A stretch of DNA of 64,000 nucleotides from a virus (IMGVR_UViG_3300001580_000006:1-64000), one strand, 5' to 3'; positions 3,422 through 26,384 are shown, counted from the stretch's first letter. The notes: a model not told the origin generated them from the letters alone. Program-made: numbers and translations.

Positions 3422-3423
3422 AT

Positions 3424-4792: not shown

Positions 4793-6643
4793 ATGCGTCA
4801 ATTTGCCTTAGCAATTTGTGCTATATTGTTGCTGGTAGGCTCAGTTAATGCTGTGCCTTATCGAGTCCGCAACGATATGACCCCAGGCACAGATCATAAA
4901 TATAGACTTGGCATACCTGGTGAAAGCTGGAGCAGCGCTAGCATAGATACTGTTTTTTGTTCTGTGCTGGTTGGTGCACTGGTTACTAATGCTGAAAGCC
5001 TATATGCAAGAGGTGCCTACCACGCAGGTGATGATTTTCTATTAAACACTGTAAGAGATACTATGCACTCCGATCTTGTAATTCAAGGTAATCTATATTT
5101 GAACAAGATCGCCACTAGTGCAGTTCCTCTTGCAGCCGGCCTATCAATGGGCTCCTCTGGAACACATTGGCGCTATGGGTACATCGATACTTTAATGAAT
5201 AACATCGGCGCACAAAGCATCCTACCAAGAGCACCTAATACGTATGATCTTGGGTCTATAGCTTATTTGTGGAAGAGTCTTTATGCAGTAGATGTAATAG
5301 GATATAAGCTAACAACTCTTAACGGAATGATAGCTGCTGGAGATTTTATAAAGTTCGATATTGACGACGACGGTGACGGCGAGTTTAGTATAGAATATCG
5401 TGGCGCTGCGGTCATGGATACTGGTGGCTATGCGGTTCGAGACTCGGTAAAAACTGATAAGCTGATATTAAACGGTAATTTCGTACCAAGCGTTGATGCT
5501 ACTTATGATCTAGGTACATCTTCGTATAGATTTAGGTTTGGAAGATTTACACACCTATACACTGATCAACTTAACCTCAACTACGGATCTATATACGTAA
5601 ATGACTCGCCTTTTAGTGTTGATATAAACGGAGACAGCGACTCGGACTTTCTATTATTTGCGTCTGGCACAAAGACTAGAGATAGCGCTGACTATGCTGT
5701 TAGAGACACCGTGAGGGCTAGATATGCCATGCTAGCTAAGCGCGCTCTAATAGACTCACTGTGGCCTACGTGGATATCTAGCTTAGCGGTTGCCGGAAAT
5801 GCAGACATAGACGGCGAGCTGTGGGTTGGTGCCGGAGTAGGACCAGCTTTAATTACCCAATATTCTGGTGTCACAGGCGGCAGATATCATGGGTATTCAA
5901 TTGCTCCCGCTCTAACATACGCTATAGGCAATATGATTACTCATGGTGAGTATGATTCTATTATCTCAACATCTTCTTGGGCCTACGCACCAATACATAA
6001 TCGCATTGGCGGTTACAGATCGAAAATACAGCATGCTAACGACTCGCTTGGCACTCCTGCTGGTCGAGCCGGGGTTTGCGGCTCAACAGTAGACGGTGCA
6101 TATGGCTTAGCCTATAACTCCGGGCAAGACGTGTTTTCCGCTGGCGGATTCAGTAGCCTACGTGGGTCGTCGCAGCACTCACGCTACGTAATGCAGGACA
6201 CCACATCAGCCGCAGATGGCGGACAAGACTCAACTTCATTAATGCTATATACCCAACAGTCTTCGCTCGACACAATGCGCACTATTTATATGCCAGACAG
6301 TACAGTTTGGAGGATAGAGGCCACCGTGTCAGCTGTAATAGATTCCGCAGAGTACCTGGACGAGGCCTTGATTGGTGCGTCATGGTCCTTCAAATTTCAA
6401 GCTTTGGTGTCAAGGACAGGCACGGTCACTGTTATAGATACAGCCACTACAGATGTATTTGAAAATATGCAAAATGCTGGTATAATCTTTGATACCTACC
6501 CAAGAGCGTACATACAAACCACCGATAAAGGCATTAAACTGCGCGCAGTTCATGGTATGCAAAGCTCTAACGCATATCAAAGGTACCGCTGGAGCGCAAA
6601 CGTAGAGATACTAGAAACTGGATTTTATCATAGACAACGCTAA
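4793..6643 (+). CDS. fibre-like protein with Sec signal peptide
   Basis: RBS GGAG before ATG 4793; MRQFALAICAILLLVGSVNA signal; four P....Y.LG....W fibre repeats (e.g. PRAPNTYDLGSIAYLWKSLY, PSVDATYDLGTSSYRF). Confidence 0.65.
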   Translation: MRQFALAICAILLLVGSVNAVPYRVRNDMTPGTDHKYRLGIPGESWSSASIDTVFCSVLVGALVTNAESLYARGAYHAGDDFLLNTVRDTMHSDLVIQGNLYLNKIATSAVPLAAGLSMGSSGTHWRYGYIDTLMNNIGAQSILPRAPNTYDLGSIAYLWKSLYAVDVIGYKLTTLNGMIAAGDFIKFDIDDDGDGEFSIEYRGAAVMDTGGYAVRDSVKTDKLILNGNFVPSVDATYDLGTSSYRFRFGRFTHLYTDQLNLNYGSIYVNDSPFSVDINGDSDSDFLLFASGTKTRDSADYAVRDTVRARYAMLAKRALIDSLWPTWISSLAVAGNADIDGELWVGAGVGPALITQYSGVTGGRYHGYSIAPALTYAIGNMITHGEYDSIISTSSWAYAPIHNRIGGYRSKIQHANDSLGTPAGRAGVCGSTVDGAYGLAYNSGQDVFSAGGFSSLRGSSQHSRYVMQDTTSAADGGQDSTSLMLYTQQSSLDTMRTIYMPDSTVWRIEATVSAVIDSAEYLDEALIGASWSFKFQALVSRTGTVTVIDTATTDVFENMQNAGIIFDTYPRAYIQTTDKGIKLRAVHGMQSSNAYQRYRWSANVEILETGFYHRQR

Positions 6644-7239
6644 TGCAGTGTGATATTTGTAGGAGACCTGGGTCTCAGTATAAGAAAACAGAATTTATAC
6701 TTTGCCCTAGATGCCTAGGAAACGCAACTGTAGCTAAAGGTGTTCTTCGCAAGAAGAAAGTATATGGTAGAAGTAGAATCCAGGCACAAACAAAATGGGC
6801 TCTACGTAAGTTCTTTTCTCCTATCACAGAAGAAGCATACTTTAAATGGGCTGTAAATCCGGAGACCGGTGCAATACTGCCATATGACTTTTTCTGCCCA
6901 TCAGTAGATCTAATAGTAGAAGTGCAGGGCCTTGAACACTATAAATTCATCAAGGCGTTTCATAAGGACCAGGCAGCGTTTGAGCGCCGCCAATTTCTAG
7001 ACAAACTAAAGAGGCTACTTGCTGAAGAGCAGGGATATAATTTCTTAGAAATCGATTGTAGACAGCTAGAAGATAAATGGTCGATAGTTAAATTCTTACA
7101 AAGGCACATAAAGCATGAAGCTAAACCTGGACCAAGCGTACGAAATATCGGAAAAAAGCGTACAACCCGAGTGGGCAAAGGACAAAGACAACAAGTACCT
7201 ACTAGCGAACATAAAGTTCTTCGTAGACCACTTTGGTAA
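6643..7239 (+). CDS. Vsr/DUF559-like PD-(D/E)XK endonuclease with N-terminal Zn ribbon
   Basis: CDIC..CPRC; PYDFF...IVEVQGLEHY...DKLKR..A...GYNFLEID. Confidence 0.7.
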   Translation: MQCDICRRPGSQYKKTEFILCPRCLGNATVAKGVLRKKKVYGRSRIQAQTKWALRKFFSPITEEAYFKWAVNPETGAILPYDFFCPSVDLIVEVQGLEHYKFIKAFHKDQAAFERRQFLDKLKRLLAEEQGYNFLEIDCRQLEDKWSIVKFLQRHIKHEAKPGPSVRNIGKKRTTRVGKGQRQQVPTSEHKVLRRPLW

Positions 7240-7312
7240 AAACTGTCCAACAGCCTCTAGGTGTCTTATTTTACTCAATGATAATATAGAAAAGCAATGC
7301 CAGACGAGATAA
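7115..7312 (+). CDS. small hypothetical protein overlapping both neighbours
   Basis: 65-aa ORF bridging to the next gene; overlaps the low-complexity tail of 6643..7239. Confidence 0.35.
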   Translation: MKLNLDQAYEISEKSVQPEWAKDKDNKYLLANIKFFVDHFGKNCPTASRCLILLNDNIEKQCQTR

Positions 7313-8091
7313 CAATAGATCGCATAGCAAAAGAAGAGGAAGAGATTTCTCTTAATCAAGCAATTGAGGAATTCATTGCGTTGATGCCATTTGCTAGTCT
7401 TCCTGAGGCGTATAAGGCGAAGCATATACTGAAGAGGTATGAAGCAAGGAAGATGAGCGATCAGATCCAGTTGAATATTGTTCGCCCAGGCTCATCGCTG
7501 CCAATGTTGTGCCGTGGTCCGTCGTGCCACATAAAACATCAATGTGCATTTAACAATGCCGAAGGCGGAGCAGTCACATTTCCTATAGGCGCTCCTTGTC
7601 CAGTAGAAGCCAGTTTAATAGAATTTTGGCGCAATGATTATTATAGAACTCTTAACATAGACCGCAGTGATAAAGTTGAACGTGATAGAACTGAGGAGCT
7701 GGTAGAGCTTGACCTAACCGTATGGAGAATTAACACCGTAATAGCTGCAAATGGCTATACGGTGGACAATGCAGTTGGAGTAAGCAATACTGGAGCTCCG
7801 TTATTTAAGAAAGAACTCAATCCGCTATTAGAAGCCAAAGATAAGGCAAGCCGTAGAAAAGATAAAATCCTAAATGAGTTTATATCTACTCGTGACTCTA
7901 GAGAGAGGTCTGCTGTACGTAGAGCCAAAATACAGTCAATGCAAAACACTGGTGACTGGTTTAAGATTCTACGTGACAAGGCAGCCGCTGCCGGCATAGA
8001 TTCTGGTAGCTTTAAGTCTCCAGTTGAGATTGCTATGGAAAAAGTTGAAGCAACTAAACAAATAGAACAGGCTGCAGCAAAGAATGGCTAA
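7297..8091 (+). CDS. terminase small subunit-like protein
   Basis: I...G......G.....ELNPLL...K...RKDKILNEFISTR.SR resembles the P27-family TerS; Cys cluster; lies upstream of TerL. Confidence 0.55.
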   Translation: MPDEITIDRIAKEEEEISLNQAIEEFIALMPFASLPEAYKAKHILKRYEARKMSDQIQLNIVRPGSSLPMLCRGPSCHIKHQCAFNNAEGGAVTFPIGAPCPVEASLIEFWRNDYYRTLNIDRSDKVERDRTEELVELDLTVWRINTVIAANGYTVDNAVGVSNTGAPLFKKELNPLLEAKDKASRRKDKILNEFISTRDSRERSAVRRAKIQSMQNTGDWFKILRDKAAAAGIDSGSFKSPVEIAMEKVEATKQIEQAAAKNG

Positions 8092-8617
8092 GTCACGTAA
8101 GCCGCTCTCAGCCGAACATAAAGCAAAGATATCAAGTGCCAGACTTGGTAAGAAACACTCTGCCGATACAAAAGCAAAGATATCTGCATCGAAGATCGGT
8201 AAGAAGCGTTCGGCAGATATGATAGCAAAGATGTGTGCCCGAAGACAGTCTGAAGAAGTCAAGGAAAAACTACGCAAACTAAATCTTGGTAAACCGCGCC
8301 CCGATTACCTTGGTAATAAGAATCCATTTTGGAAAGGTGGCATTACGGCGGCAAACTGGGGGCTAAATAAAGCACTACGTTCAACATTTGAGTATCGTCA
8401 GTGGCGTTCAGATGTTTATACTAGAGATAATTTTACTTGCCAGGATTGTGGAGATAATAAAGGCGGTAACCTAGAGGCTCATCACAAAAAGGGATTTCAG
8501 CAAATAATAAATGAACACAAAATAACTACAGTCGAACAAGCTTTAGCCTGTGAGGAACTGTGGAATATTAATAATGGCGTTACTTTGTGCAAAGACTGTC
8601 ATAAGAGGTATAAGTAA
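8084..8617 (+). CDS. HNH homing endonuclease, NUMOD3 repeats (family A)
   Basis: SAEHKAKIS/SADTKAKIS; WKGGIT; RDNFTCQDCG; AHHKK; TLCKDCH. Confidence 0.88.
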   Translation: MAKSRKPLSAEHKAKISSARLGKKHSADTKAKISASKIGKKRSADMIAKMCARRQSEEVKEKLRKLNLGKPRPDYLGNKNPFWKGGITAANWGLNKALRSTFEYRQWRSDVYTRDNFTCQDCGDNKGGNLEAHHKKGFQQIINEHKITTVEQALACEELWNINNGVTLCKDCHKRYK

Positions 8618-9725: not shown

Positions 9726-9734
9726 CCGACTTTT

Positions 9735-10325
9735 ATGAGTAAGAATAAAGGTACATTCGAATCACTGATTGGCCGGATATTTGGAAAATTAACCGTTCTG
9801 TCCCGCCTGCCAAATGACAAATTTGGTACAGCCAAGTGGTTGTGTCAGTGCGAATGTGGGCATCAGACCAACACAAGAACTACCAAATTGATATCTGGAA
9901 AAATAACACAGTGCCAAAGTTGTAACCGTAAAGGTAACATCGATAGAAGACTGCCTCCTGGCGAGTATGGCTTTAACAATCATTATCGTAGTATACAACG
10001 CGGCGCGGAGAAGCGCAGAATAGAATTCTCCCTCACGAAAGGCCAAGTTCGTGAGTTAAATCAGCGCCCGTGCTACTACTGTGGCTGTCCTCCGTCTCAA
10101 ATATATAATGGAACCAGGGCAAAATCAGTCACCGCTGCTGGGCGCCTTCATGCGGCATATACCTATAATGGTGTGGACCGGGTTGATAATACAAAAGGCT
10201 ATACCATTGATAACTGTGTTCCCTGCTGTAAGGTCTGTAATTGGATGAAATCGGATTTGCCCTATGAGGATTTTATTACCCACATCGAGCAGATTCTGGC
10301 GATTCATAAGAAGGCAGTTGAATAA
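9735..10325 (+). CDS. HNH-type homing endonuclease (family C)
   Basis: LIGRIFGKLTV..WLCQCECG N-domain; CYYCG..NGVDRVDNTKGYTIDNCVPCCKVCNWMK. Confidence 0.85.
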   Translation: MSKNKGTFESLIGRIFGKLTVLSRLPNDKFGTAKWLCQCECGHQTNTRTTKLISGKITQCQSCNRKGNIDRRLPPGEYGFNNHYRSIQRGAEKRRIEFSLTKGQVRELNQRPCYYCGCPPSQIYNGTRAKSVTAAGRLHAAYTYNGVDRVDNTKGYTIDNCVPCCKVCNWMKSDLPYEDFITHIEQILAIHKKAVE

Positions 10326-11488
10326 TGGATCAAGTAACTAGCATACAGGGCCCCGGAACAATAAGCGGTGCCGAGGAATTAGCAACTGCCCCGATGTCTG
10401 AAAAGCCCGGGGTAGCAAAATCTATTCTCGGCGAGATATATGGGCACCCGGTAAGAAACCTAGCGTATCAATACTACTTAACTCCTTGGAATATACGTCC
10501 AGGGATGAAATGGCACGGTGCGTTTGGTTGGAAGGGTATTGCTGGAACATCCAACAACCCGCTTAACCCAGTAGTGGCTGCTAGGTATGGTGCAGGTAGA
10601 GCCGCAGCAGGAATTACTGGCAAGGTTGGTCTTAGCGGCACCAGTTCATTCTTTAATGCCTTCGCTGGTGGTGGGTTTGCTCAGATCTCAAAACAAATGC
10701 AAGCAACTAGTCCAGCCACAACTGCTGTTTTTAGTGCACTTAGTAAACTGACTGGCGGAACACCCACTTCTCATATTGGCGTGTTTGGCTATGGCTTAAT
10801 GGGCGGGATCAAGCCCGGTGTTATAAAAGGATTTCAAACGGCTGCAACACAGAACTGGGGTAGAGGCCAGATGCGGATGGCTGAAGTATTTGGCCCAGAA
10901 GTAACTGGAGGGTGGACCGGAGTAAACCCAAGCTTAACCTCCTATTTGGAGAAAAACACCGCCAATTTTGTTGGAAACTTTGCTGGTAAGGCTACGGCTC
11001 TTACAGAAAAATATGCATCCAACTGGAATGCAATTAGAACAATCGGTGGCGGAGTGCGCAGCGCGTTTGGCGGCTCATCCACAAGTTTATATGAGAAGTT
11101 GGCTGGCGACGCGGTAAAGAAATTTGGTCTTACTAGGGCGTCCGCTACAGCAGAGGCAACTGCTTTCCTACGCGGCAACGCAATAATGTTTGGGCTAAGA
11201 ACAGCGGCTACCGCCTCTCTAATATATGATATAGGAAAGTTTGCTACAAAGCAAACTTACAAATTAACTAAGTATGCGCTTGAAGGCAGCAGTGCTGCAG
11301 TTGAGGGTATATTATCCCAAGAATGGGGGACTGGCCAACTATCACCTGGGTTTATGGCAGCTAACTCAATGACTGAAAGGCAGAGAGCTCTTAGCGAAAT
11401 CAATCGCTCTTCTATGAATGCTAGAAGCCTACTAGGCAACGAAGCCTCCCTATCTGCTCGTACTTATCTAGGCGGCAGAATTATATGA
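10325..11488 (+). CDS. Gly/Ala-rich protein, candidate internal/ejected virion protein
   Basis: 387 aa, G/A-rich, Cys-free, directly upstream of TerL. Confidence 0.45.
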   Translation: MDQVTSIQGPGTISGAEELATAPMSEKPGVAKSILGEIYGHPVRNLAYQYYLTPWNIRPGMKWHGAFGWKGIAGTSNNPLNPVVAARYGAGRAAAGITGKVGLSGTSSFFNAFAGGGFAQISKQMQATSPATTAVFSALSKLTGGTPTSHIGVFGYGLMGGIKPGVIKGFQTAATQNWGRGQMRMAEVFGPEVTGGWTGVNPSLTSYLEKNTANFVGNFAGKATALTEKYASNWNAIRTIGGGVRSAFGGSSTSLYEKLAGDAVKKFGLTRASATAEATAFLRGNAIMFGLRTAATASLIYDIGKFATKQTYKLTKYALEGSSAAVEGILSQEWGTGQLSPGFMAANSMTERQRALSEINRSSMNARSLLGNEASLSARTYLGGRII

Positions 11489-13419
11489 TGCTAGAAGCAG
11501 TAGAACAAGTAGACATATCAAAATTTCTTATCTCCGACGACTACGACCAGCGCAAAGAGGAAGCCGAAGACAAAGAGTGGCTAGAGTCGTCGGCACAGAA
11601 GCTGCAGTCATTTGAAGACATGCTTACTGAGCTACGTCCTGACCAGTTAGCACAACAACTTACCACTTGGAATCTACCATCGGCTTGGGCGGAGACTTAC
11701 TTAAATCACCCCGATGATCCCGCAAAGCCACTAGAGCTAAAGAACTTTCAAACCACTATTATAAATGACTGGCACCCAAACGTAGTATTGCGTATTGGCC
11801 GCCAGCAGGGTAAATCAGTGGTCCTGTGTTGCAGGGCAATCTGGTATTGCATGCGACACCCAAATAAAACATTCCTTATAGCTACGCCAACTAGAGCACA
11901 GGTATGGCGTTTATTCGAGGCTGTATCAAACCTAGCATATAATCTCATTCTGCAAGAGCAGATAAAAGTTACCCGCGGTAACCCTATGATAGTCCGTTTT
12001 CCAAATGGATCCAAAATCGTAGGATTTACTGTAGGCACTAAGTCTGGTAGAAAAGCTTTTGGTGTTCGTGGTCAGATGGCCGACGTGCTAGCTCTCGACG
12101 AGGCTGATTTAATGAGCGAGGGAGACGTATCTACCCTATACGCTATTAAAAACAACCTGAAAGAAAAGCTACACTTCTGGATGTCGTCAACCCCAACAGG
12201 GGAGCGAAAGCAGTTCTACACAGCCTGCACTAAGGCTAATGAATTAGGCTACCATCACTATCACTTCCGCCCAGAGGAGCTGCCCGGGTATAACGCAGAG
12301 ACTGACAAAGAACTCCGTCAGATGATTCCACTGGACGAATACGAACATGAAATCTTGGCTGAGTTTGGGTCCATCGCCGCCGGCGTATTCCGTACGGATC
12401 TGCTAGAAGACGCTATGGACGACAAATCAATGCCTCCTTTCATCGACGGCGTTCTTACTACCTATGATACTGCAAAGTATCTTCCAGTTAACGAAGCTCG
12501 CCTGTACACTATCGGCGTGGATTGGAATACGGCATCTGTCGGCCAGGCTATCACCGTAATGGAATGGAATATCCAAACGAAGAAAGCTCGCATATGGCTA
12601 CAAGAAGAAATACCTGGTAAGTTATATTCCCACTCTGATGCTGTTAATAGAATAATCCAGCTCACTAAGTTGCTAGACCCAGACACTATTGCTGTAGACC
12701 ACGGCTTTGGCGATGCAGATATCGAACGGCTGCGTATGGCAGATGATGACCACGTTGGGCTAAACATGAAAAATCGCTTAATGGTCGTTAACTTTGGTGT
12801 AGACATAGAGATCGAAGACCCGATGACCAGAGAGATAGTTCGTAAGGATGCAAAGCCGCTGGTTATCAACTCTACTGTTATGCTACTTGAAAATCATATG
12901 TTATCTCTACCAAAAGTCTGGGACACTAAGAACAGACTTATAGATGATATGCGTCATTATATGATCATGCGAAAGTCAGAAGCCGGCTCAACGATTTATA
13001 CTAAAACAAATGATCACAGAATTATATCATTCTGTCTAGCCAATTTTGCTATTTCGTTGAAAGGAAACATTCTTATACCCGGGCGCACAGGTGCAGTAGA
13101 GCGCATAGTGATGAAAAACTCAGACATTTGGTCCACTTTAATAGATAAGCATCCATCAGCTAGTCGCACTAGTAGTATAGAGTCTATTAATTACTTCAAT
13201 AAGTCGTCAAAGAAGCAGTGGAATTCTAGTATAGCTGCATCTAAGTCTAGAGAAAGTAGTGATGAAGTAACGATAAAGCAGTTTAAGAAGCAACTTGCTG
13301 GAGGTGGAAAGCCCATTTTAGCAGGAAGAGTCTCGTGGGCCAACCGTCGAGCTGCCGGAATACCAACTAGTTTAGTAAACACGCCATTTTTATCACGCAG
13401 CGGTAGAAGAATTAAGTGA
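11485..13419 (+). CDS. terL: terminase large subunit
   Basis: Walker A IGRQQGKS, Walker B VLALDEAD, coupling motif SSTPTG, RNase H-like nuclease IGVDWN..AVDHGFG..NDH. Confidence 0.93.
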   Translation: MMLEAVEQVDISKFLISDDYDQRKEEAEDKEWLESSAQKLQSFEDMLTELRPDQLAQQLTTWNLPSAWAETYLNHPDDPAKPLELKNFQTTIINDWHPNVVLRIGRQQGKSVVLCCRAIWYCMRHPNKTFLIATPTRAQVWRLFEAVSNLAYNLILQEQIKVTRGNPMIVRFPNGSKIVGFTVGTKSGRKAFGVRGQMADVLALDEADLMSEGDVSTLYAIKNNLKEKLHFWMSSTPTGERKQFYTACTKANELGYHHYHFRPEELPGYNAETDKELRQMIPLDEYEHEILAEFGSIAAGVFRTDLLEDAMDDKSMPPFIDGVLTTYDTAKYLPVNEARLYTIGVDWNTASVGQAITVMEWNIQTKKARIWLQEEIPGKLYSHSDAVNRIIQLTKLLDPDTIAVDHGFGDADIERLRMADDDHVGLNMKNRLMVVNFGVDIEIEDPMTREIVRKDAKPLVINSTVMLLENHMLSLPKVWDTKNRLIDDMRHYMIMRKSEAGSTIYTKTNDHRIISFCLANFAISLKGNILIPGRTGAVERIVMKNSDIWSTLIDKHPSASRTSSIESINYFNKSSKKQWNSSIAASKSRESSDEVTIKQFKKQLAGGGKPILAGRVSWANRRAAGIPTSLVNTPFLSRSGRRIK

Positions 13420-14045
13420 TTAAAAACAACACTTTTCCTAAATTAGGTCACCAGTGCTCAGAAGAGACTAAGGCCAAGTTGCGGACTGCCGCGCTTGCTC
13501 GTGGAGCTAAACCGCCATCCCGCAAAGGTTGTCGTGCGTCAGAAGAAACGCGTATAAGAATAGGCGTAGGACACCTTGGCGGGCGTAGGTCTGCCGAAAC
13601 CAAAGCTAAGATGCGGGAGGCCTCACTTGGTAAAACTATGTCTATGGAGGCTAGGTCAAAAATGGGCTCCTCCAAGCGTGGCATGCCTCTATCTACTGAA
13701 CACAAGAGAAAGATAAGCGAGGCCCTCTCTAAAGAAAAAGCCCCAAACTGGAAAGGTGGTATTACAGCAGTAAACTGGGGATTAAGTAAAGCACTGCGCT
13801 CCACATTTGAGTATCGTCAGTGGCGCTCCGATATATTTACCCGGGACAACTTCACTTGTCAAGGTTGCGGAAAACGCGGTTCGTATCTTCACGCACACCA
13901 TAAAAAGCACCTCCAAGATATCATAAATGAGTATAACATAACTACAGTTGAGCAAGCTTTAGTTTGTGAAGAATTGTGGAATATTAATAATGGCACGACC
14001 CTTTGTAAGGGCTGCCACAAGAAGAGGCATCAAAGACGTGCGTAG
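13416..14045 (+). CDS. HNH homing endonuclease, NUMOD3 repeats (family A)
   Basis: CSEETKAKL/SAETKAKM/STEHKRKIS; WKGGIT; RDNFTCQGCG; AHHKK; TLCKGCH. Confidence 0.88.
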   Translation: MIKNNTFPKLGHQCSEETKAKLRTAALARGAKPPSRKGCRASEETRIRIGVGHLGGRRSAETKAKMREASLGKTMSMEARSKMGSSKRGMPLSTEHKRKISEALSKEKAPNWKGGITAVNWGLSKALRSTFEYRQWRSDIFTRDNFTCQGCGKRGSYLHAHHKKHLQDIINEYNITTVEQALVCEELWNINNGTTLCKGCHKKRHQRRA

Positions 14046-16524: not shown

Positions 16525-18246
16525 ATGTCCCTAATCATTGCTGGCTCACTGCCTGCTACAATATCGGCTCAGGACCAAGAGCTGAAAAAGCGTGCTCCTT
16601 TAGCTAGAAGTGTTGGTTTAAAAACTAAGCCAATGCGCACTAGTTTGGTGCATGACGGCGAGAAAGATGCCAAGCGAAATGGTGATCCAGCTGACGTAAG
16701 GCCGCAGTTGTATGACTATGAGTCTATACGTAGGTTGCTAAATATTGAATCGTACTTCTCTAGGATTTGCTGGAAGTATGTAGAACAGATATGGAGCCGC
16801 GGTTGGGACATAGTATCTAAAACTCCGACAATCTCAGCCTATATTAAAAAGAGATTGGCACAAATAGCATACGTATCAGATTACACCACACACGAGTTAC
16901 TAGTAGATACCGCTATACAGTTAGTTGCGTATAGTAACGTGTATATCAAGAAAATCAGAAAACTTGAATCATCTGGTGGTGCAGCATATTATATTGGTGG
17001 AAAAAAGATACTACCAATCGCTGCTTTGGTAGTTCTAGATACTCCATCTGTTCGAGCTCTTAGAAACGAGTTTGGTATTCCTGTAGTTTATCAGCAAAGA
17101 GTTCGCGAGCAAACTCCAAGTGGATATGTAGATATATACGAAGACATTTCTCCACAAGACATAATCCACATTACATTCCATCGCGATGCCGGATTTAGCG
17201 AAGGCACGCCGATGGTGATTCCTGTTATAGATGACATTGCCGCTCTCCGTAGGTTAGAGGAAACCGCTGAAATTATAGCCTTCCAGGCGTCCATACCGAT
17301 CTATCACTTTAAAGCTGGAACAGAAAAGTCACCTGCCGGTGCCCCAGAAGTAGACGATCTTGAGTCTAGAGTATCGGAGATGCTTGCCCATGGAGCTCTA
17401 ATTACTAACGAGCGCATGACAGCTGCCGTTATCCAGGCTGAGGCCGAAATTACTAGCATACTTGAGTTCATCCAGTACTATAAAGGCAGAGTACTTATGG
17501 GCCTAGGAACGTCTGGAGTAATGGTTGGCGAATCAAGTACCTCTAATAGAGATACTTCGTTAGTGCTGACTAACGAAATGCATCAAGTAACTAGAATGAT
17601 GCAAAGGGCTATTAAGGAGGCATTCGATCATCGCATATTTACCGATCTTCTATTAGAGGGGTCAGTGGATATCTTTGATTCCAGATACACAGCTCAACTA
17701 TATATTCCAGAAATAGATGTAGATGCACAGAGAGCGCACCAAGACCACGGCCTACTTCTATATCAGGGTGGAGCAATTGGCGAGACAGAGCTTCGTGGTG
17801 CTTATCTTGGCCTAGACCCAATAGATGATTCTCAAAGAGAAGATATGTACCTAGAGAGATTCATTATACCTAAGATTGTAGCAACGGGTCAGGCTGCTGC
17901 TGATGCCAAAATCGCTGGCGCCGAAGCCTCCGCTAAGAAAACGCAATCGCAATCGAGGCCTACCAACCAACATGGTACAAAGGCTGCTCCAGCAAAGAAA
18001 GCTAAAAGAGATGCTATGGCCGCAGTGGAGAAAGAGGTAAGAGGCACTGCGTCAGCAGAAGACTGGATGCGAATCGCTACGGATGCGTTTGATCTTACAG
18101 ACAAAGCAAAGGTAAAGCTTCACATAATATTCCGTGATAATGAGATAATACTTAAGAACTCCGTTATACCTGATCTTACAGAATTAACATACGATGAAAT
18201 AATTAGCGCAATATCAACCATTGTGCCGGAGGAGTCCGTTAAATGA
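16525..18246 (+). CDS. portal protein
   Basis: QLVAYSNVYIKK, IIHITFHRDAG..GTPMVIPVIDDI..LRRLEE and VLMGLG..V.VG.....NR portal signature; position after TerL. Confidence 0.85.
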   Translation: MSLIIAGSLPATISAQDQELKKRAPLARSVGLKTKPMRTSLVHDGEKDAKRNGDPADVRPQLYDYESIRRLLNIESYFSRICWKYVEQIWSRGWDIVSKTPTISAYIKKRLAQIAYVSDYTTHELLVDTAIQLVAYSNVYIKKIRKLESSGGAAYYIGGKKILPIAALVVLDTPSVRALRNEFGIPVVYQQRVREQTPSGYVDIYEDISPQDIIHITFHRDAGFSEGTPMVIPVIDDIAALRRLEETAEIIAFQASIPIYHFKAGTEKSPAGAPEVDDLESRVSEMLAHGALITNERMTAAVIQAEAEITSILEFIQYYKGRVLMGLGTSGVMVGESSTSNRDTSLVLTNEMHQVTRMMQRAIKEAFDHRIFTDLLLEGSVDIFDSRYTAQLYIPEIDVDAQRAHQDHGLLLYQGGAIGETELRGAYLGLDPIDDSQREDMYLERFIIPKIVATGQAAADAKIAGAEASAKKTQSQSRPTNQHGTKAAPAKKAKRDAMAAVEKEVRGTASAEDWMRIATDAFDLTDKAKVKLHIIFRDNEIILKNSVIPDLTELTYDEIISAISTIVPEESVK

Positions 18247-19283
18247 AAAGAATAATACTTACAGTGTTCTCCATAGCCATACTAGCCAGCATCGCCATAG
18301 GCCAAATAGCTACAGATATTAAGCTAACGCTATTCGACCCGGCCGACTCTACGTGGAAAACAGCAGCTGGAAGACCAGTAGAGAGTGCGCCGTGGGGCCG
18401 TGGAATAATTGCTAGAATGTGGACTGATAATGGCACCACCTGGACCCCACTTGGTCCTGTTGGTGACTCTACCAGACTTACTTCAACTTCTATAGTAAAT
18501 CAACTTTTTGCCGCTATAGATGACTCTGGGCGTGGAGCTTGGACTAGCTACATAGAGATTGATTCATTTAAAATGATATCAGGAAAGTTGTCTGGTGGAC
18601 TAAGCATTGGAAGCGCTCCTGTAATTACATGCTCTTTTTCTCCTGGTGGAGGCGCCCCTGTTATAGAAACAAGTACTCTAACCTCAGTATACGGCTCTCT
18701 TGTGCTCTGCGGTGGTGATGATGGATGGGGCCGTGGTGCACTTTACGCCGTAAGTATGCGTGATACATCAGTAGAACCCTTTGCTGGAGTTTGTGGGTAC
18801 GATTGTAATTATGATGGTATTCGTGAAAAGCAAGTTTATATTGGTGGCGTGGGCTGGCAGGCACCAAATGCAAACTCTGTAGTAATCTGGTCGACCCAAA
18901 CCTATGCTGGCGACCCAGACGGTTTGGATGGGCAATTAGGTGCATACTTGATGCCTGGCGGTAGTTGGCTGTTCAAAAGCTTAGGTGTCGGCGACTTCAA
19001 CAGTAGTTATAGCGGTCTATACAATCCTGTGGCTTATAAGGTATATGTTGAGGGCGGGCTTAGTGTAGATAAAATAAATACGTCCGATAGCATTACCGGC
19101 TTCGATGGTAGTGAGACTATTAGCAACTTTGGTGCCTACTCTACGAAAGACACTCTCTCACCGTTTGTTGTTGGCGATCCAAATACAAACGGTTCTTGGC
19201 GGCTAATCGGTAGCGGCGACGATCTCGTAGTACAAAGAAAAGAGTCAGACGTATGGGTAACAAAACAAACCTATAGCCCATAA
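18243..19283 (+). CDS. fibre/adhesin-like protein with Sec signal peptide
   Basis: MKRIILTVFSIAILASIAIG-Q signal; beta-rich; C-terminal GDPNTNGSWRL..GDDLVVQR. Confidence 0.55.
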   Translation: MKRIILTVFSIAILASIAIGQIATDIKLTLFDPADSTWKTAAGRPVESAPWGRGIIARMWTDNGTTWTPLGPVGDSTRLTSTSIVNQLFAAIDDSGRGAWTSYIEIDSFKMISGKLSGGLSIGSAPVITCSFSPGGGAPVIETSTLTSVYGSLVLCGGDDGWGRGALYAVSMRDTSVEPFAGVCGYDCNYDGIREKQVYIGGVGWQAPNANSVVIWSTQTYAGDPDGLDGQLGAYLMPGGSWLFKSLGVGDFNSSYSGLYNPVAYKVYVEGGLSVDKINTSDSITGFDGSETISNFGAYSTKDTLSPFVVGDPNTNGSWRLIGSGDDLVVQRKESDVWVTKQTYSP

Positions 19284-19406: not shown

Positions 19407-19408
19407 AT

Positions 19409-19945
19409 ATGAGATACATCGTAATGCACCACTCCTACACTATAAGTGGGAAAACTGTTAGTTGGGATGATATCAAGAGATATCACACTTCTTGGAGATA
19501 CAAAGATAGTATTATCTCTAAAGAGGATGCTGAGGATTTGATATCAAAAGGTAAGGCTGTGACGGAGCCATGGGCCGATATAGGATACCACATGGGTGTA
19601 GAGGAGCTAACAACTGGTATTATAATTGTACAATTTGGTAGACCACTAGAGCAGTCTGGGGCACACGCCAAAGGCTACAACACCAACGGCTACGGTGTGT
19701 GTATAGTTGGTAATTTCGATAAAAACGAGCCTAGCGAAAAACAATGGCAGACAGCCATTGAAGTAGTTCGAGGTTTAATGGTAAAAGATAATATTCCGGT
19801 GTCAAATGTAATTGGTCACTGGGAAACCTTTATAGCCAAAGGACAAGCTAGTAATAAAAAAGAGGCTCAAAAAATTAAATCATGCCCGGGTTTGAAGTTC
19901 GATATGGTAAAGTTTCGGACTGAACTTGGTACATGGACAGTTTAA
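19409..19945 (+). CDS. endolysin, N-acetylmuramoyl-L-alanine amidase (Amidase_2/T7 lysozyme-like)
   Basis: IVMHHS, DIGYH, GAHAKGYN, GVCIVGNFD, IGHWE and KSCPG zinc ligands. Confidence 0.92.
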   Translation: MRYIVMHHSYTISGKTVSWDDIKRYHTSWRYKDSIISKEDAEDLISKGKAVTEPWADIGYHMGVEELTTGIIIVQFGRPLEQSGAHAKGYNTNGYGVCIVGNFDKNEPSEKQWQTAIEVVRGLMVKDNIPVSNVIGHWETFIAKGQASNKKEAQKIKSCPGLKFDMVKFRTELGTWTV

Positions 19946-19961
19946 CTAAAAGGAGTATAAC

Positions 19962-20315
19962 ATGATCGCTTCAATCATTGCACTATCTGTAATTCTGGGT
20001 GCCACAACCGCTACCGTTGTTGAGTTCTTCAAGAAAGCCGCTGCTGCTGGCAAAGCATTCTTTGTAAAGATCATCGGTGGATGGAAGACAATCGTCACCG
20101 CAGTAGTAGTTGGCTTGATAGTAGGTGCAGGCTACAAGGCCTTACTTGTAACTGGCCTAGCAGCCCTATTTCTATCTGCAGCCCAGGTCACGGCGCTTGC
20201 TGCCTTTGCTGGTATGCCATGGCTCGGCTTCATAGCTGCCGGCGGATATTCTGGCGCAGTTGTGTCTGGTGTCATTAGTCTTATATCTGGTTGGCTAAAA
20301 CCATCAGTAAAATAA
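19962..20315 (+). CDS. holin
   Basis: Small 3-4 TM protein directly after the endolysin; RBS AAGGAG. Confidence 0.7.
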   Translation: MIASIIALSVILGATTATVVEFFKKAAAAGKAFFVKIIGGWKTIVTAVVVGLIVGAGYKALLVTGLAALFLSAAQVTALAAFAGMPWLGFIAAGGYSGAVVSGVISLISGWLKPSVK

Positions 20316-20322
20316 CTAAAAA

Positions 20323-20364: not shown

Positions 20365-20451
20365 AGATTCCTTCGTAAACACTTGTAAATAGTGGGTTTC
20401 CGCAAAAATATGACTATATGTTGTATAACGACGTAACCTATTAGTTGCAAG

Positions 20452-20485
20452 CATTTTGGCCTTTCTACATGATTCGTGCTATAAT
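20452..20485 (+). promoter_or_regulatory. promoter, CATTTT-N22-TATAAT with extended -10
   Basis: GCATTTTGGCC...GTGCTATAAT upstream of HNH 20497 and the head operon. Confidence 0.65.
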
Positions 20486-20496
20486 TAGAACAATAA

Positions 20497-21024
20497 ATGA
20501 TAGATATATCTGGTAAACATTTTGGGCGCCTTACGGCTGTCAAAAGAGCACACAGGGCAAAGAATGGGGAATATACGTGGTTATGTAATTGTAGCTGTGG
20601 TGGCAAAACAACGGTGGCCCTCAATAGTTTAAAAAAGGGACTTACAAAATCCTGTGGCTGTTTGCAAAGAGAAGAAGCCTCCATACTGCACAAGGTGCTG
20701 CCCCACCCAAAAGGATCGGCGCATCCTAGCTGGAGAGGCGGACTAACTAGACTTGGGACCGCCATACGGAATCTGCTTGAGTACCATCAGTGGCGTAGTG
20801 CTGTTTTCCACAGAGATGGGTTCACCTGCCAGAAGTGTGGTAATAAGGGTGGCTGTTTGCACGCACACCATAAGAAGCATTTCCAGACTATTATTGACGA
20901 ATACAACATAACCACAGTAGAGCAAGCAATAGCTTGCGAAGAACTATGGGATATCTGGAATGGTACTACTCTTTGTAAGGACTGCCACAAAGAAACACAT
21001 GAAAACCTAGGAGAGGTAAATTGA
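20497..21024 (+). CDS. HNH homing endonuclease, DxxGxxFGRL N-domain (family A nuclease)
   Basis: DISGKHFGRLT..WLCNCSCG..TKSCGC; RDGFTCQKCG; AHHKK; TLCKDCH. Confidence 0.88.
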   Translation: MIDISGKHFGRLTAVKRAHRAKNGEYTWLCNCSCGGKTTVALNSLKKGLTKSCGCLQREEASILHKVLPHPKGSAHPSWRGGLTRLGTAIRNLLEYHQWRSAVFHRDGFTCQKCGNKGGCLHAHHKKHFQTIIDEYNITTVEQAIACEELWDIWNGTTLCKDCHKETHENLGEVN

Positions 21025-23096: not shown

Positions 23097-23125
23097 ACCT
23101 ATCAAGTTACGGAGGAACTTCTAAC

Positions 23126-24280: not shown

Positions 24281-24308
24281 TCCGCGCTGAAGTAGGAGGA
24301 ATATATAA

Positions 24309-25715
24309 ATGTATACACAGCAACAGGTTATGGCACTATTGGATCAGGTCGGGGGCGCTTATCAGCCAACCGAAGATCAGAAGAAACTCTGGTCTTCACG
24401 TAGAAAAGTAGCTAACTTAGCTGACACTTTCCTTAACCACGGGTTTGCCCCCGATGGCGAAATGAAGCGTCTAGGCGACGTTATCACCTCTACCGAGCTA
24501 AAGCCCTTCGTAGAGCCTGCAATTCAGTATGTCATCATTTCAGCCATGGCTCCGAAACTCCTTGTTTCGACTTACCTCTTCCGCGAGATGCAGGTCAACA
24601 AGGAAATCCTCAAAATGGGGTTCGTGGGTCCGCTAAAGGCTGAGCTCATTCCCGAAGGCGGTGAATATCCTGATATCACCTGGGCAATGAGAGAGACCGG
24701 TGATGCCATAAACATCACCCCCTTCAAATACGGTTTGAAGATTCCTATCACCGAGGAAGCCATTGCCAAGTCCGAATGGGACGTAATCTCCTTCTGGTTC
24801 GAAAGAGCTGGTTGGGCCCTAGCAACTCGTAAGGAAGAAGAGGCAACTCAACTTCTACTAGAAGCCGGCCACACCTCATTTGACAACAGCAATCCAACTG
24901 CAAGTGCTCATGGTTGCACCACTGGCCGTGCCGTAACCGGCGCTCAGAATGGAACCTGGACACTAAATGACCTCATCACTCAGTGGGCAGATCTAGCAAT
25001 GCTAGGCCTGACCCCAGACACCATCATCATGAACCCACTAGCTTGGGCCGTGCTGCTGGCAGATCCTGAACTGCAGAGCGTCATCCGCAACTCGACCATC
25101 ATGCAGGAGAAAATGCCTGGTGGAGAAGGTGCACCTGGCTTCGGTCAGTCATTCCACGGCGGGCTAGGACTATGGTCCAAATCCACTGGTTGGAACTGGA
25201 ATAGCAAAGAGCTAGTCCCAACTCCTCCACTGGTTCCACCGGCCACCACTGGCGGACGTGAAGGCTCCGATCCTTGGTCTTGGGGTCTAAACCCAATGGG
25301 CGCTAACTTCGTAATGAGCGGTGGGATGTTCCCAGGCCCAGTACGTATTCTAGTAACCCCAACTGTCTACATCGACTCCGATGGTTTCGTAAATCCGAAC
25401 CCAGGTGGCGGTGGTGGGCTCCCAGCTAGCGGAACTCTAGCAGTAACAGATATCATAATGGCAAGCTCGCAGTACTGCGGTATCACTGCCACCCCAGCCG
25501 GAGCAGTTATCAAGTTCGACGAGTGGAACGATCCATCCCGTGATATCCGCAACATAAAGGCTTCGGCACAGTGGGCTATGGCCATCCTGGCTCAGGGTAA
25601 GGGCATCAATATCGCTCGCAAGATCGTTATCGACCGCAACTACGCCTTCAGTAACGTCAATAGCATCACCATCACCGACCCGATCTCGAAGACCACAACT
25701 TTCGCTTCTGCCTAA
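24309..25715 (+). CDS. major capsid protein (HK97 fold)
   Basis: AELIPEGGEYP, KYGLKIPITEEAI..S.WD and PDTIIMNPLAW patterns; RBS AGGAGG. Confidence 0.9.
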   Translation: MYTQQQVMALLDQVGGAYQPTEDQKKLWSSRRKVANLADTFLNHGFAPDGEMKRLGDVITSTELKPFVEPAIQYVIISAMAPKLLVSTYLFREMQVNKEILKMGFVGPLKAELIPEGGEYPDITWAMRETGDAINITPFKYGLKIPITEEAIAKSEWDVISFWFERAGWALATRKEEEATQLLLEAGHTSFDNSNPTASAHGCTTGRAVTGAQNGTWTLNDLITQWADLAMLGLTPDTIIMNPLAWAVLLADPELQSVIRNSTIMQEKMPGGEGAPGFGQSFHGGLGLWSKSTGWNWNSKELVPTPPLVPPATTGGREGSDPWSWGLNPMGANFVMSGGMFPGPVRILVTPTVYIDSDGFVNPNPGGGGGLPASGTLAVTDIIMASSQYCGITATPAGAVIKFDEWNDPSRDIRNIKASAQWAMAILAQGKGINIARKIVIDRNYAFSNVNSITITDPISKTTTFASA

Positions 25716-25727
25716 TCGCTGAATGCC

Positions 25728-25755
25728 GCAGGGTGGGGCGCAATCCCCACCCTGC
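25728..25755 (+). terminator. GC-rich stem-loop after MCP
   Basis: GCAGGGTGGGG-CGCAAT-CCCCACCCTGC, an 11-bp perfect stem with a weak U-tract. Confidence 0.7.
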
Positions 25756-25778
25756 TTAAAACCAACAAGGAGAAACTG

Positions 25779-26384
25779 ATGCGCAAATTTTTCGCATTAC
25801 TGCTTTGCATGGGTTTACTGATGGTGGGAGCAGCCTCGGCCCAGTATATACCTTATGGTGCCTATCGGTGGACAAAGGTAACCGCCTTTGACTCACTGGA
25901 AGTAGATACCTTAAAGTGGACTACAGCGTCTGGAAGTATTCCTGCTAATTTTTGGTTGCCAACAATCAAGTATAGTGACTTACTTCTAACACTATCTGTG
26001 ACCCACGCTTCCCTATCACCAAAGTACCTAGTCTACGTGGACTACCGATATATCTTTGGTCCAACTAGTGCTGATACTGTAACCCAGACTTATACCATTA
26101 CCCCTGGCGACGACACCCTAAGAACTGCGATCACTCATAATCTATTGCAGTACCCAAATACCTACACGTTCTCTACAACTCTCGATAGTTCAGCTTTCAT
26201 GGCTGACTCGGTTGTAACTGTAGGAGATACACTAATACGGATCGTCGGTACCAATGTAATAGGCGTCACTGGAAATGCATTCGCTCCGCCTGAGAATCCA
26301 ATGTATGGATGTGAAGTCAGAGTTCGTGTAAAATCATTCCGTGCTGGTCTAATACTAAATCGCAACGTCTGGTTCCGTAAGTAA
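25779..26384 (+). CDS. capsid-adjacent beta-rich protein with Sec signal peptide
   Basis: MRKFFALLLCMGLLMVGAASA-Q signal with AxA cleavage site; RBS AAGGAG. Confidence 0.65.
   Translation: MRKFFALLLCMGLLMVGAASAQYIPYGAYRWTKVTAFDSLEVDTLKWTTASGSIPANFWLPTIKYSDLLLTLSVTHASLSPKYLVYVDYRYIFGPTSADTVTQTYTITPGDDTLRTAITHNLLQYPNTYTFSTTLDSSAFMADSVVTVGDTLIRIVGTNVIGVTGNAFAPPENPMYGCEVRVRVKSFRAGLILNRNVWFRK

Follow-up and report, generated by a model that had tools for sequence, protein, structure and literature searches.

Motif-driven periplasmic O-glycosylation has been described for Bacteroidota only, where the substrates of the general system carry a three-residue motif that is confined to proteins with export signals, is enriched in soluble extracytoplasmic proteins and shows a preference for particular residues at its +1 position (review PMC12871550). 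The proteins reported here resemble those substrates in each of these features, and differ from them in that they are phage-encoded and that their glycosylation is read from the sequence. They belong to a 223-kb jumbo myovirus of lytic type, known as an uncultured phage, whose first 64,000 nucleotides (IMGVR_UViG_3300001580_000006:1-64000) are the stretch of DNA analysed here and are referred to as the window.

Proteins with a signal peptide followed by Gln (the Q-rule) were reported from prophages of Porphyromonas gingivalis and interpreted as an adaptation to host secretion (PMC10367356). As in those prophages, leaders followed by Gln at +1 are found here on phage-encoded proteins that lack an assigned function, but that study concerns temperate Bacteroidia phages and mentions glycosylation or sequons 0 times, whereas the present genes are SD-led, lie in a lytic-type jumbo myovirus and include one that encodes a fibre-like protein. 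Leaders ending YS|QV, SA|QT and NA|QT are also present on gp085, gp086 and gp087 of Cellulophaga phage phi18:3 (NC_021794), which are virion or tail proteins by MS/MS according to that record. These resemble the present proteins as large Bacteroidota-phage proteins with classical leaders and Gln at +1, but they have one sequon each, which is below expectation, they come from an SD-poor podovirus, and no sequence similarity between them and the predicted exported proteins here was detected. An earlier, sequence-only reading of the window had proposed a new system of Sec-exported virion glycoproteins; the label of a new system is too strong, since the proteins are unrelated rather than parts of a multi-component system and the leader-bearing virion proteins of phi18:3 were already on record.

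Two further comparisons come from outside the virion. The MAT fibres of Bdellovibrio combine a signal peptide with a beta-helical stalk resembling those of tail fibres and the K1F endosialidase, and with variable C-terminal binding tips (Caulton et al. 2024, PMC10769870). They are adhesins used outside the cytoplasm (PMC10769870), as is proposed below for the fibre-type protein, but they are bacterial, and in every one of them the leader is followed by a conserved ~130-aa domain that is missing from the phage proteins. The latter also gave no sign of an S74 chaperone domain, and MATs have no link to O-glycosylation. With spanins and periplasmic lysis proteins the present proteins share a predicted export and a location beside endolysin and holin genes, and a TM-anchored post-endolysin protein of Bacteroides phage B40-8 is likewise sequon-rich (5 in 201 aa). 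Unlike spanins they have predicted cleavable signal peptidase I (SPI) leaders, and they either exceed them considerably in size (346 aa) or are unrelated; as a heuristic scan found neither a lipobox nor a further TM segment or membrane anchor in the three window proteins, their identification as spanins was rejected.

Predicted signal peptides

Three genes of the window, which all sit amid head and packaging genes, and two genes outside it encode proteins of the SPI class.

4793..6643, + strand: 616-aa fibre-like protein, predicted exported; 15 sequons; GGAG at 4782-4785
4793..4852, + strand: predicted Sec/SPI signal peptide of 20 aa, VNA/VPY cleavage (heuristic scan)
16525..18246, + strand: portal gene (phrog_9232, E 3e-32), landmark of the post-portal slot
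18243..19283, + strand: 346-aa protein, predicted exported; 4 sequons; GGAGGAG at 18228-18234
18243..18302, + strand: predicted signal peptide of 20 aa, AIG/QIA cleavage, Gln +1 (heuristic scan)
24309..25715, + strand: major capsid protein (MCP), landmark (PF25209, phrog_3922); 1 sequon in 468 aa
25779..26384, + strand: 201-aa all-beta protein, predicted exported; 6 sequons; AAGGAG at 25767-25772
25779..25841, + strand: predicted signal peptide of 21 aa, ASA/QYI cleavage, Gln +1 (heuristic scan)
G000 197910-198665, - strand: fourth predicted SPI-type protein, outside the window, SNA/AQ cleavage
216735-217115: fifth predicted SPI-type protein, outside the window, AAA/Q cleavage

The starts of the window genes are backed by strong SD sequences, with GGAG 7 nt 5' of ATG 4793, AAGGAG 6 nt 5' of ATG 25779 and GGAGGAG 5' of ATG 18243, a start codon that overlaps the stop of the portal gene; in an independent gene call (protein collection) the first gene likewise has a product of 616 aa. 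Signal peptides were called across the genome with a heuristic scan of our own rather than a trained predictor, the SPI class being defined by a positively charged n-region, an uncharged hydrophobic core of 10-16 residues, small residues at -3/-1 and the absence of a lipobox Cys and of any further TM segment. All three window proteins have these features (K/R n-regions, cores of 12-16 residues, cleavage contexts VNA|V, AIG|Q and ASA|Q), which bears out the classical leaders noted in the sequence-only reading, as do the two proteins outside, and the five are unrelated to one another in sequence. Gln directly follows the predicted cleavage site in the proteins from 18243, 25779 and 216735, as had been noted for the first two, but not in that from 4793; the 197910 protein has it at +2, or at +1 if cleavage falls one residue further on, and the homologues in relatives L002 and L003 have it at +1 too. 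No C-terminal T9SS sorting domain of type A or B was matched (NCBIfam/Pfam) in the five, or in the siphophage protein P0007 discussed below, which leaves the periplasm as the destination to be expected.

The same N-termini could be membrane tethers or prohead-protease propeptides, with the proteins remaining on the cytoplasmic side, given that the leaders were called by a heuristic predictor only and that the Porphyromonas phage study ascribes leader-like MCP starts to the prohead protease (PMC10367356). We regard this as highly improbable, because the small -3/-1 residues are canonical and followed by Gln, the leaders are kept in relatives though the mature parts diverge, and sequon enrichment would be pointless in a domain that does not face the periplasm.

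Sequon enrichment

The sequon was defined as D-[ST]-[AILVMT], and the 222 phage ORFs of at least 100 aa were ranked by its density. The five predicted exported proteins take ranks 1, 2, 3, 8 and 12 (Mann-Whitney against the other ORFs, p = 2e-5). Manual counts in the sequence-only reading (15, 4 and 6 in the three window proteins, 4 in the sheath and 1 in the MCP) proved exact, and the enrichment they suggested holds in shuffles: the pooled five have 32 sequons against 7.3 ± 2.5 when composition is preserved, a number attained in 0 of 20,000 shuffles. Their pooled density of 2.2 per 100 aa is 7.5x that of ORFs without a signal peptide and 4-5 times the 0.48 of the secreted proteins sampled from a candidate host-like genome. 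Individually, the 201-aa protein has the highest density of the 222 ORFs (3.0 per 100 aa) and the 616-aa protein has 2.4 (15 sites against 3.3 ± 1.7 in shuffles), while the enrichment of the 346-aa protein alone is not significant (4 against 1.8, p = 0.10).

Control motifs (E-, N-, reversed, swapped and permuted) stay at 0.74-1.33x and D-[ST]-other at 1.7x, and a residue of the AILVMT set follows D-[ST] in 76% of cases in the exported proteins versus 42% elsewhere. Phage proteins that are membrane-anchored or polytopic contain 0 sequons, which makes the signal specific to soluble proteins of the SPI class. In the only two relatives the leader, Gln +1 and the positions of the sequons are kept. 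The post-portal signal-peptide protein of the relative G256 ranks #1 of 93 ORFs by sequons, and in an unrelated SD-rich siphophage the ORFs with a signal peptide or TM anchor have 1.1-3.0 sequons per 100 aa, others at most 0.7. The phage has 0 genes of the GT2 and GT1 families, which favours glycosylation by the host over a phage-encoded one.

Export could also be real and the enrichment reflect a structural habit common to secreted proteins rich in beta structure, or some other, unknown system of modification or recognition. The exported proteins are indeed rich in D, S, T, G and Y and poor in E/K, just 5 proteins are concerned, and the host may fall outside the lineages with demonstrated glycosylation, which for these proteins is a prediction from sequence. 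Such an origin of the motif is unlikely, as shuffles that keep composition fall so far below the observed count, reversing, swapping or permuting the motif abolishes the enrichment, the five proteins share no sequence relationship, the +1 spectrum (L, V, T, A, I) agrees with the published glycosite preference, sequons stay in register at 33% identity, and the pattern is seen again among the secreted proteins of an SD-using phylum-sample genome (see below).

The fibre-like protein

4749..4757, + strand: extended -10 promoter-like element TGGTATAAT, 5' of the 616-aa gene (read from the sequence)
5060..5632, + strand: tail-fibre/tailspike stalk-type repeats, Y-x-L-G...R-W/F...Y units (HMMER matches)
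5633..6640, + strand: unique C-terminal ~335 aa of the 616-aa protein; no detectable relatives; 9 of the 15 sequons

An exhaustive HMMER search with the 616-aa protein gave 145 matches, every one to mature residues ~70-260, so that the stalk repeat region is the sole part with relatives. The 616-aa protein itself falls below Pfam thresholds, but PF12219 (End_tail_spike) is present in 9 of 10 tested matches and 7 of 7 tested matches go to tail fibre or tail spike families in PHROGs. A signal-peptide-like start is found in 5 of the 145, whose median sequon density is 0.46 per 100 aa. Stalk repeats of the phage tail fibre/tailspike type occur here in the 616-aa protein alone, which has no paralogue in the phage and is the sole fibre-repeat protein of the genome. 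No recognisable N-terminal virion-attachment domain was found in the mature protein, where the repeats begin ~20-70 residues past the cleavage site. The 616-aa protein may just as well belong to the virion; the MS/MS-listed virion proteins of phi18:3 have leaders of this kind.

The 346-aa and 201-aa proteins and their neighbours

19038..19280, + strand: C-terminal ~83-aa domain common to the 346-aa protein and P0007 (48% identity over 83 aa, E 2e-19)
19409..19945, + strand: Amidase_2 endolysin-type gene adjoining the 346-aa gene (PF01510, E 1.9e-14; PHROG lysis families)
19962..20315, + strand: 117-aa holin-like protein with four hydrophobic segments; 0 sequons
25728..25755, + strand: GC-rich hairpin with an 11-bp stem, after the MCP stop (25715) and before the 201-aa gene (read from the sequence)

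The N-terminus of the 346-aa protein is 46% identical over 74 aa to the post-portal ORF of the closest relative, L002, which keeps the leader, Gln +1 and the first DST sequon. Its C-terminal domain is shared, together with a DTL sequon, with P0007, a signal-peptide-bearing fibre-repeat protein of the unrelated siphophage that is encoded after large tail proteins. An Amidase_2 gene and a 4-TM gene follow the signal-peptide gene in all three relatives, and the 117-aa holin-like gene is kept 3' of the hydrolase gene in L002 and L003.

For the 201-aa protein a word search of 5.8 billion proteins returned no homologue, and structure modelling was confident for the signal peptide only, as a helix; Atlas leads to Bbp16/XepA clusters were set aside as under the reliable range. 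One homologue was located by synteny, in L003, with 33% identity. It keeps the leader (IASA|QSV) with Gln +1, has 4 of 4 of its sequons in register, and occupies the post-portal slot beside Amidase_2 and 4-TM lysis-type genes. In L002 no counterpart, and no gene at all, lies between the MCP gene and the next one. A head decoration or cement protein would be expected to have a conserved gene beside that of the MCP, which the 201-aa gene is not. The hairpin upstream of its gene has no T-run after the stem, and a terminator scan made no call there. A place beside lysis genes, seen for both the 346-aa gene and the homologue in L003, is positional evidence only.

Taken with the fibre repeats, these genes bear on the proposal that the exported proteins are virion appendages (fibres or head decoration) that mature and are glycosylated in the periplasm and, once the inner membrane is breached at lysis, dock onto particles already completed, giving glycan-coated virions. 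In its favour are the stalk repeats unique to the 616-aa protein, the domain shared by the 346-aa protein and P0007, the leader-then-Gln starts of gp085-gp087 and the location of the three genes among head and packaging genes. On the other side, the mature 616-aa repeats are preceded by no attachment domain, the 201-aa gene is missing after the MCP gene of the closest relative and its homologue is placed elsewhere, and the phage encodes a complete tail module of conventional type, whose proteins lack leaders. The virion proteins of phi18:3 are moreover sequon-poor (1 each against 3.0-3.6 expected), so that leader-bearing virion proteins and sequon loading are unlinked in that phage. No post-lysis docking step is known in tailed phages. 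We consider virion appendages possible but doubtful: the leaders, the specific sequon enrichment and their conservation all stood up, whereas membership of the virion did not gain from the absence of the 201-aa gene after the MCP gene in L002 or from the lysis-type neighbours. For two of the three proteins, action on the cell envelope, which the sequence-only reading offered as an alternative, is no less probable.

The proposed host

SD use is 55% across the phage; three cultured phages of Bacteroidia have 2-7% and loci of Bacteroidota 5%. TGnTATAAT is present in 14 of 81 upstream intergenic regions. These two features separate the phage from phages of Bacteroidia; the sequence-only reading had reported SD use and TATAAT promoters, and its case for a host other than an SD-poor member of the Bacteroidia stands up. 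Unlike Bacteroidia, the host here appears to be SD-using. An SBP-OmpA fusion gene of the phage has full-length homologues (41-54% identity) almost only in Bacteroidota MAGs, and these relatives fall in SD-poor lineages. We know of no experimental proof of sequon glycosylation beyond Bacteroidia.

One SD-using genome of the phylum sample combines the Q-rule with a 2x sequon enrichment. In G009 (the phylum sample around a Saprospiraceae genome) SD use is 36%, Gln is at +1 in 16 of 31 soluble SPI-like proteins, and 76 sequons are found against 48 ± 6 in shuffles. The presence of SD-using, Q-rule and sequon-enriched genomes in the same phylum sample makes such a host coherent, if unproven; no CRISPR or prophage link from the phage to a host was found. 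Published Q-values reach 77% in Ignavibacterium and 55% in Chloroherpeton (Bochtler et al. 2018, PMC5837995).

A candidate phage secretome

The explanation that we prefer, at a probability of about 0.5, is a small phage secretome that would be glycosylated by the host in the periplasm and function outside the cytoplasm, in an SD-using Bacteroidota/FCB host. It would comprise five or more soluble proteins without relation to one another, three of which the window encodes; the host Sec machinery would translocate them and signal peptidase I would cut them, exposing in most an N-terminal Gln (Q-rule, pyroglutamate). The general Bacteroidota-type system of the host would then O-glycosylate them at their dense D-(S/T)-(A/I/L/V/M/T) sites, the host being a member of the Bacteroidota/FCB radiation that uses SD rather than a typical SD-poor member of the Bacteroidia. 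The proteins would act outside the cytoplasm and would not be incorporated into the particle there. The 616-aa protein may be an adhesin of trimeric-fibre type with a private C-terminal binding domain, building up in the periplasm until its release at lysis and then binding envelope or surface glycans, while the 346-aa protein and the 201-aa family may form part of a portal-adjacent endolysin/holin-like cassette that acts on the envelope late in infection.

Tailed virions assemble in the cytoplasm, and to our knowledge the building of tailed-phage parts outside it has not been described. The leaders and dense sequons of the five proteins, including the fibre-like one, suggest that in this phage they probably mature and are O-glycosylated outside the cytoplasm.

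The phage and its relatives

The window is the first 64 kb of a 223,464-bp IMG/VR record (G000; completeness 94% by CheckV), which belongs to a jumbo myovirus with the following landmarks.

Landmark features in the window
1666-4026, array of 11 tRNAs
11485-13419, TerL
16525-18246, portal
24309-25715, major capsid protein (MCP)
29860-33531, sheath, 1223 aa
61446-62714, baseplate wedge gene

The MCP is only a distant relative (28-33% identity) of the proteins from the Bacillus 0305phi8-36 group, a Moorella phage and an Acinetobacter phage. Two relatives were found in total, both from the same metagenome (IMG sample 3300002220): an 85-kb contig (L002, also G256), with a portal 52% and an MCP 69-71% identical to those of the phage, and an 8-kb contig (L003). 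Word-based homologue searches returned self-matches, P0006 and P0007 (a signal peptide protein of an unrelated siphophage) and nothing else. No further relatives were found in viral contigs by scans with A2, A3 and A5, in metagenome contigs by scans with portal and MCP alignments, or in genome contigs by scans with P0007 and an amidase alignment.

The phage has two repeated gene families. Many small NUMOD3/HNH genes are scattered between the structural genes, have in common a repeated motif of the type S-x-E-T-K-A-K-I and look like a homing endonuclease family. The second family shares the N-terminal pattern FGRLTV...W-x-C-x-C-x-C-G, has no Pfam match and is probably another mobile nuclease family; one of its copies sits between the holin-like gene and a 691-aa head gene. 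Three giant genes (2061, 1981 and 2223 aa) follow one another at 40071-59099, with the tail tube/sheath region on one side of them and baseplate genes on the other.

Repeated gene families
272-730, 8084-8617 and 13416-14045, NUMOD3/HNH genes with a Pfam match
39478-40074, 60855-61376 and, in whole-record coordinates, 82127-82660, further genes of the NUMOD3/HNH family
9735-10325, 20497-21024, 37795-38310 and 59707-60393, FGRLTV family

Predicted exported proteins of the phage

The sequence-only reading had singled out three ORFs of the morphogenesis region as encoding secreted proteins, and all three are present as it described. Judged from sequence, their N-termini are textbook signal peptidase I (SPI) leaders. 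Our own heuristic predicted the cleavage sites listed below, detected no lipobox or second hydrophobic segment in the three proteins and, when run on all 310 ORFs, yielded only two others of the soluble SPI type, whose genes lie outside the window.

Predicted soluble SPI-type proteins and cleavage sites
4793-6643, plus strand, 616-aa protein, VNA/V
18243-19283, plus strand, 346-aa protein, AIG/Q
25779-26384, plus strand, 201-aa protein, ASA/Q
197910-198665 (whole record), minus strand, additional protein, SNA/AQ
216735-217115 (whole record), additional protein, AAA/Q

The starts that encode the three leaders are all preceded by a strong, properly spaced Shine-Dalgarno (SD) motif. ATG 4793 has GGAG 7 nt upstream, with TGGTATAAT at 4749-4757, and an independent gene call also gave 616 aa; ATG 18243, which overlaps the portal stop codon, is preceded by GGAGGAG, and ATG 25779 by AAGGAG 6 nt upstream. 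A spanin reading was rejected, as the signal peptide proteins have no lipobox or anchor. No type IX secretion system (T9SS) sorting domain was found in the exported proteins; they were thus rejected as T9SS cargo, and the periplasm is their expected destination.

Sequon enrichment in the predicted exported class

The earlier counts of the Bacteroidota O-glycosylation sequon, D-[ST]-[AILVMT], proved exact (15, 4 and 6 in the three proteins, 4 in the sheath and 1 in the MCP), and the enrichment they hinted at holds against both shuffled sequences and non-secreted ORFs. The five signal peptide proteins, chosen from their N-termini alone with no part played by sequon ranking, take ranks 1, 2, 3, 8 and 12 in sequon density among the 222 ORFs of at least 100 aa. 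Over their mature parts the count is 32 sequons, whereas shuffles with the composition of each protein kept gave 7.3 +/- 2.5 and reached 32 in 0 of 20,000 cases; sequon density is 7.5-fold that seen in the other ORFs (Mann-Whitney p = 2e-5). Taken alone, the 346-aa protein is not significant (4 sequons, 1.8 expected, p = 0.10).

The same comparison with control motifs (E-[ST]-hydrophobic, N-[ST]-hydrophobic, reversed, swapped and permuted forms, and the N-glycosylation motif) gave ratios of 0.74-1.33, and D-[ST] followed by any other residue gave 1.7; chance and composition are ruled out as causes by the shuffles and these controls. In 32 of 42 cases D-[ST] is followed by L, V, T, A, I or M, in agreement with the published glycosite preference (PMC12871550). 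Membrane-anchored and polytopic proteins of the phage, including the holin-like protein, an ABC permease and a substrate-binding protein (SBP)-OmpA fusion, have zero sequons, so that the signal is specific for soluble exported proteins. Searches of the phage found no glycosyltransferase of family GT2 or GT1. The reading we consider best, with a probability of roughly 0.7, is that these proteins would be exported to the periplasm and O-glycosylated there by the host.

Conservation in relatives and recurrence elsewhere

The order of genes after the portal is alike in the window, L002 and L003, namely a signal peptide gene, a downstream ORF and a 4-TM gene. The downstream ORF is an Amidase_2 endolysin-type gene in the window, where it follows the 346-aa gene and precedes the 4-TM holin-like gene; L002 has a 65%-identical homologue, and L003 another, unassigned ORF. 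The post-portal gene of L002 encodes a short protein that shares 46% identity over 74 aa with the N-terminal part of the 346-aa protein, has the same leader, Gln at +1 and first DST sequon, and has the highest sequon density of the 93 ORFs on that contig. L003 instead carries at this place a homologue of the 201-aa protein (30-33% identity, E 1e-9, leader IASA/Q), and each of its four sequons falls in the alignment columns of one of the six sequons of that protein; three-residue motifs kept in register at 33% identity argue for selection on the sequon sites themselves.

The 346-aa protein ends in 83 aa that match the C-terminus of P0007 at 48% identity, with a DTL sequon conserved between the two. 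P0007 is 360 aa long, combines a leader with a fibre repeat and is encoded behind tube and large tail proteins on an unrelated 33-kb siphophage contig, where ORFs with a signal peptide or TM anchor have 1.1-3.0 sequons per 100 aa and other ORFs at most 0.7. A scan of 401 genomes of the phylum sample with the shared domain found no match. The association of leaders with sequons is real, specific and conserved.

Neither the 346-aa nor the 201-aa protein has a match in Pfam, PHROGs or NCBIfam. Atlas look-ups gave sub-threshold leads only (viral hypothetical clusters, with low shares of Bbp16/XepA, T4 gp9/10_N and PTL_trimer). AlphaFold2 with a 2-row alignment gave the 201-aa protein a pLDDT of 44.8, too low for use. 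The 201-aa gene is preceded by a GC-rich hairpin after the MCP gene, and L002 has no counterpart behind its MCP; the gene therefore behaves like a mobile cassette and not a core head gene, and a decoration-protein reading was rejected for the same absence. In the cultured Bacteroides phage B40-8 (L118, 15801-16406), a TM-anchored protein whose gene comes straight behind that of the endolysin carries 5 sequons over its 201 aa (2.5 per 100 aa), which suggests that periplasmic proteins of its lysis cassette may be glycosylation substrates too.

The inferred host

SD-type motifs (GGAG, GAGG or AGGA at -20 to -4) precede 55% of phage genes against a background of 10%, and use is 55-58% across the phage and the relatives L002 and L004. 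In these three TGnTATAAT is frequent, and TATAAT is the commonest upstream hexamer of the phage. By comparison, SD use is 2-7% in Cellulophaga phage phi18:3, Flavobacterium phage 11b and Bacteroides phage B40-8, and 5% in Bacteroidota chromosomal loci, which counts against a typical Bacteroidia host. An explanation by a phage bS21 that frees the anti-SD in such a host was rejected, the phage having no PF01165 match.

A Bacteroidota-type host is favoured by the sequon, by Gln at +1 after SPI cleavage (the Q-rule) and by homologues of the SBP-OmpA fusion. This 512-aa protein, encoded among ABC-transporter genes outside the window (whole record 174955-178251, minus strand) and also present in L002, joins an NMT1/phosphonate-type substrate-binding domain to an OmpA peptidoglycan-binding domain. 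Its full-length homologues (41-54% identity) come almost only from Bacteroidota metagenome-assembled genomes (MAGs), chiefly Saprospiraceae, and it occurs in 5 of 251 sampled genomes of the phylum. Other full-length homologues lie on a Leptospiraceae contig (L113) and on SD-rich contigs of a Saccharibacteria MAG (L095) and a Paceibacterota MAG (L097), both binned in 0.8-Mb CPR genomes. CPR organisms have no outer membrane, which makes an OmpA fusion odd there; phage or other foreign DNA put in the wrong bin may account for these contigs. NadE relatives span many phyla at 39-53% identity and are uninformative on the host.

A blind screen of the phylum sample around a Saprospiraceae genome, with SD use scored by the same crude measure, found SD-using members (G009, G023 and G024). 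G009 has 45% GC, like the phage, SD use of 36%, Gln at +1 in 16 of 31 soluble SPI-like proteins and a sequon excess (76 against 48 +/- 6 in shuffles; 0.48 against 0.24 per 100 aa, p = 0.008). For G024, SD use is 31%, with Gln at +1 in 12 of 23 and only a weak sequon excess. The exported proteins of the phage have 4-5 times the sequon density of the secretome sampled from G009. Published values for Gln at +1 are 77% in Ignavibacterium and 55% in Chloroherpeton (PMC5837995). Together with the screen, they make an SD-using FCB host outside the classical Bacteroidetes, as proposed earlier, a coherent candidate. The phage, L002 and L004 combine SD use, the Q-rule and Bacteroidota-type sequons.

Where the exported proteins would act

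The 616-aa protein is fibre-like. Searched exhaustively with HMMER against 1.8 billion representatives, its mature form gave 145 matches, all confined to a repeat region at about mature residues 70-260, and the C-terminal ~335 aa had no relatives in that search. Of ten matches tested, nine have the End_tail_spike stalk repeat, and the seven compared with PHROGs all fell in tail fibre or tail spike families. A signal peptide-like start occurs in only 5 of the 145, and the median sequon density is 0.46 per 100 aa, compared with 2.4 in the 616-aa protein; both its leader and its sequon load are thus unusual among fibres of this class. The idea that fibre homologues with signal peptides are generally sequon-rich did not hold, the five not being so; in three of the five, as read from their N-termini, Gln directly follows a plausible cleavage site. 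The 616-aa protein lacks a paralogue in the phage, and AlphaFold2 gave its mature form a pLDDT of 34.3, again too low for use.

We prefer a mechanism in which the exported proteins would work outside the cytoplasm, and not as part of the particle built inside it, and give it about even odds. Docking of the proteins onto virions after lysis is a serious rival, if an improbable one. Virion membership is favoured by the fibre type of the 616-aa protein, by the tail-module position of P0007 and by cultured phi18:3 (NC_021794, L124; 32891-38583), whose gp085, gp086 and gp087, annotated as virion/tail proteins from MS/MS in the GenBank record, all have a classical leader followed by Gln. These three have only one sequon each against 3.0-3.6 expected, however, so leader-bearing virion proteins exist and are sequon-poor in this phage. 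Virion membership is further weakened by the presence of a full tail module without leaders, by the position of two of the three genes, which lie beside lysis-type genes or shift between genomes, and by the mature 616-aa protein, which has no recognisable attachment domain.

A broader version of docking, which we regard as quite unlikely, is that in Q-rule, O-glycosylating hosts the fibre-like recognition proteins of tailed phages would travel via Sec, be glycosylated by the host in the periplasm and join finished particles only at lysis, in an extracytoplasmic last assembly step dependent on host glycans. If true, it would place that step here in a jumbo myovirus of an SD-using, non-Bacteroidia lineage and extend the known range of sequon-driven glycosylation.

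Implications

Periplasmic O-glycosylation driven by this motif is described as Bacteroidota-specific, with a transferase that is still unknown (PMC12871550). The literature searched held no case of a phage that exploits the host's general O-glycosylation for its own proteins, and nothing on exported or O-glycosylated tailed-phage fibres; it deals instead with cytoplasmic glycosyltransferases that phages encode and with secreted morons that carry no modification. The nearest observations are Porphyromonas prophage proteins for which the Q-rule is described and glycosylation not mentioned (PMC10367356), and the Bdellovibrio MAT fibres, exported fibre adhesins with phage-like stalks (PMC10769870).

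The proteins supply concrete test substrates, the best being the fibre-type protein with 15 sites, and raise the question of how a fibre-like protein could leave the cytoplasm and yet serve a virion built inside it. Sequon, Q-rule and SD use together offer a cheap host-prediction signature, and suggest that the glycosylation system is active in SD-using relatives of Bacteroidia. If these proteins are exported and glycosylated, the phage would be using the general O-glycosylation machinery of its host on its own proteins.
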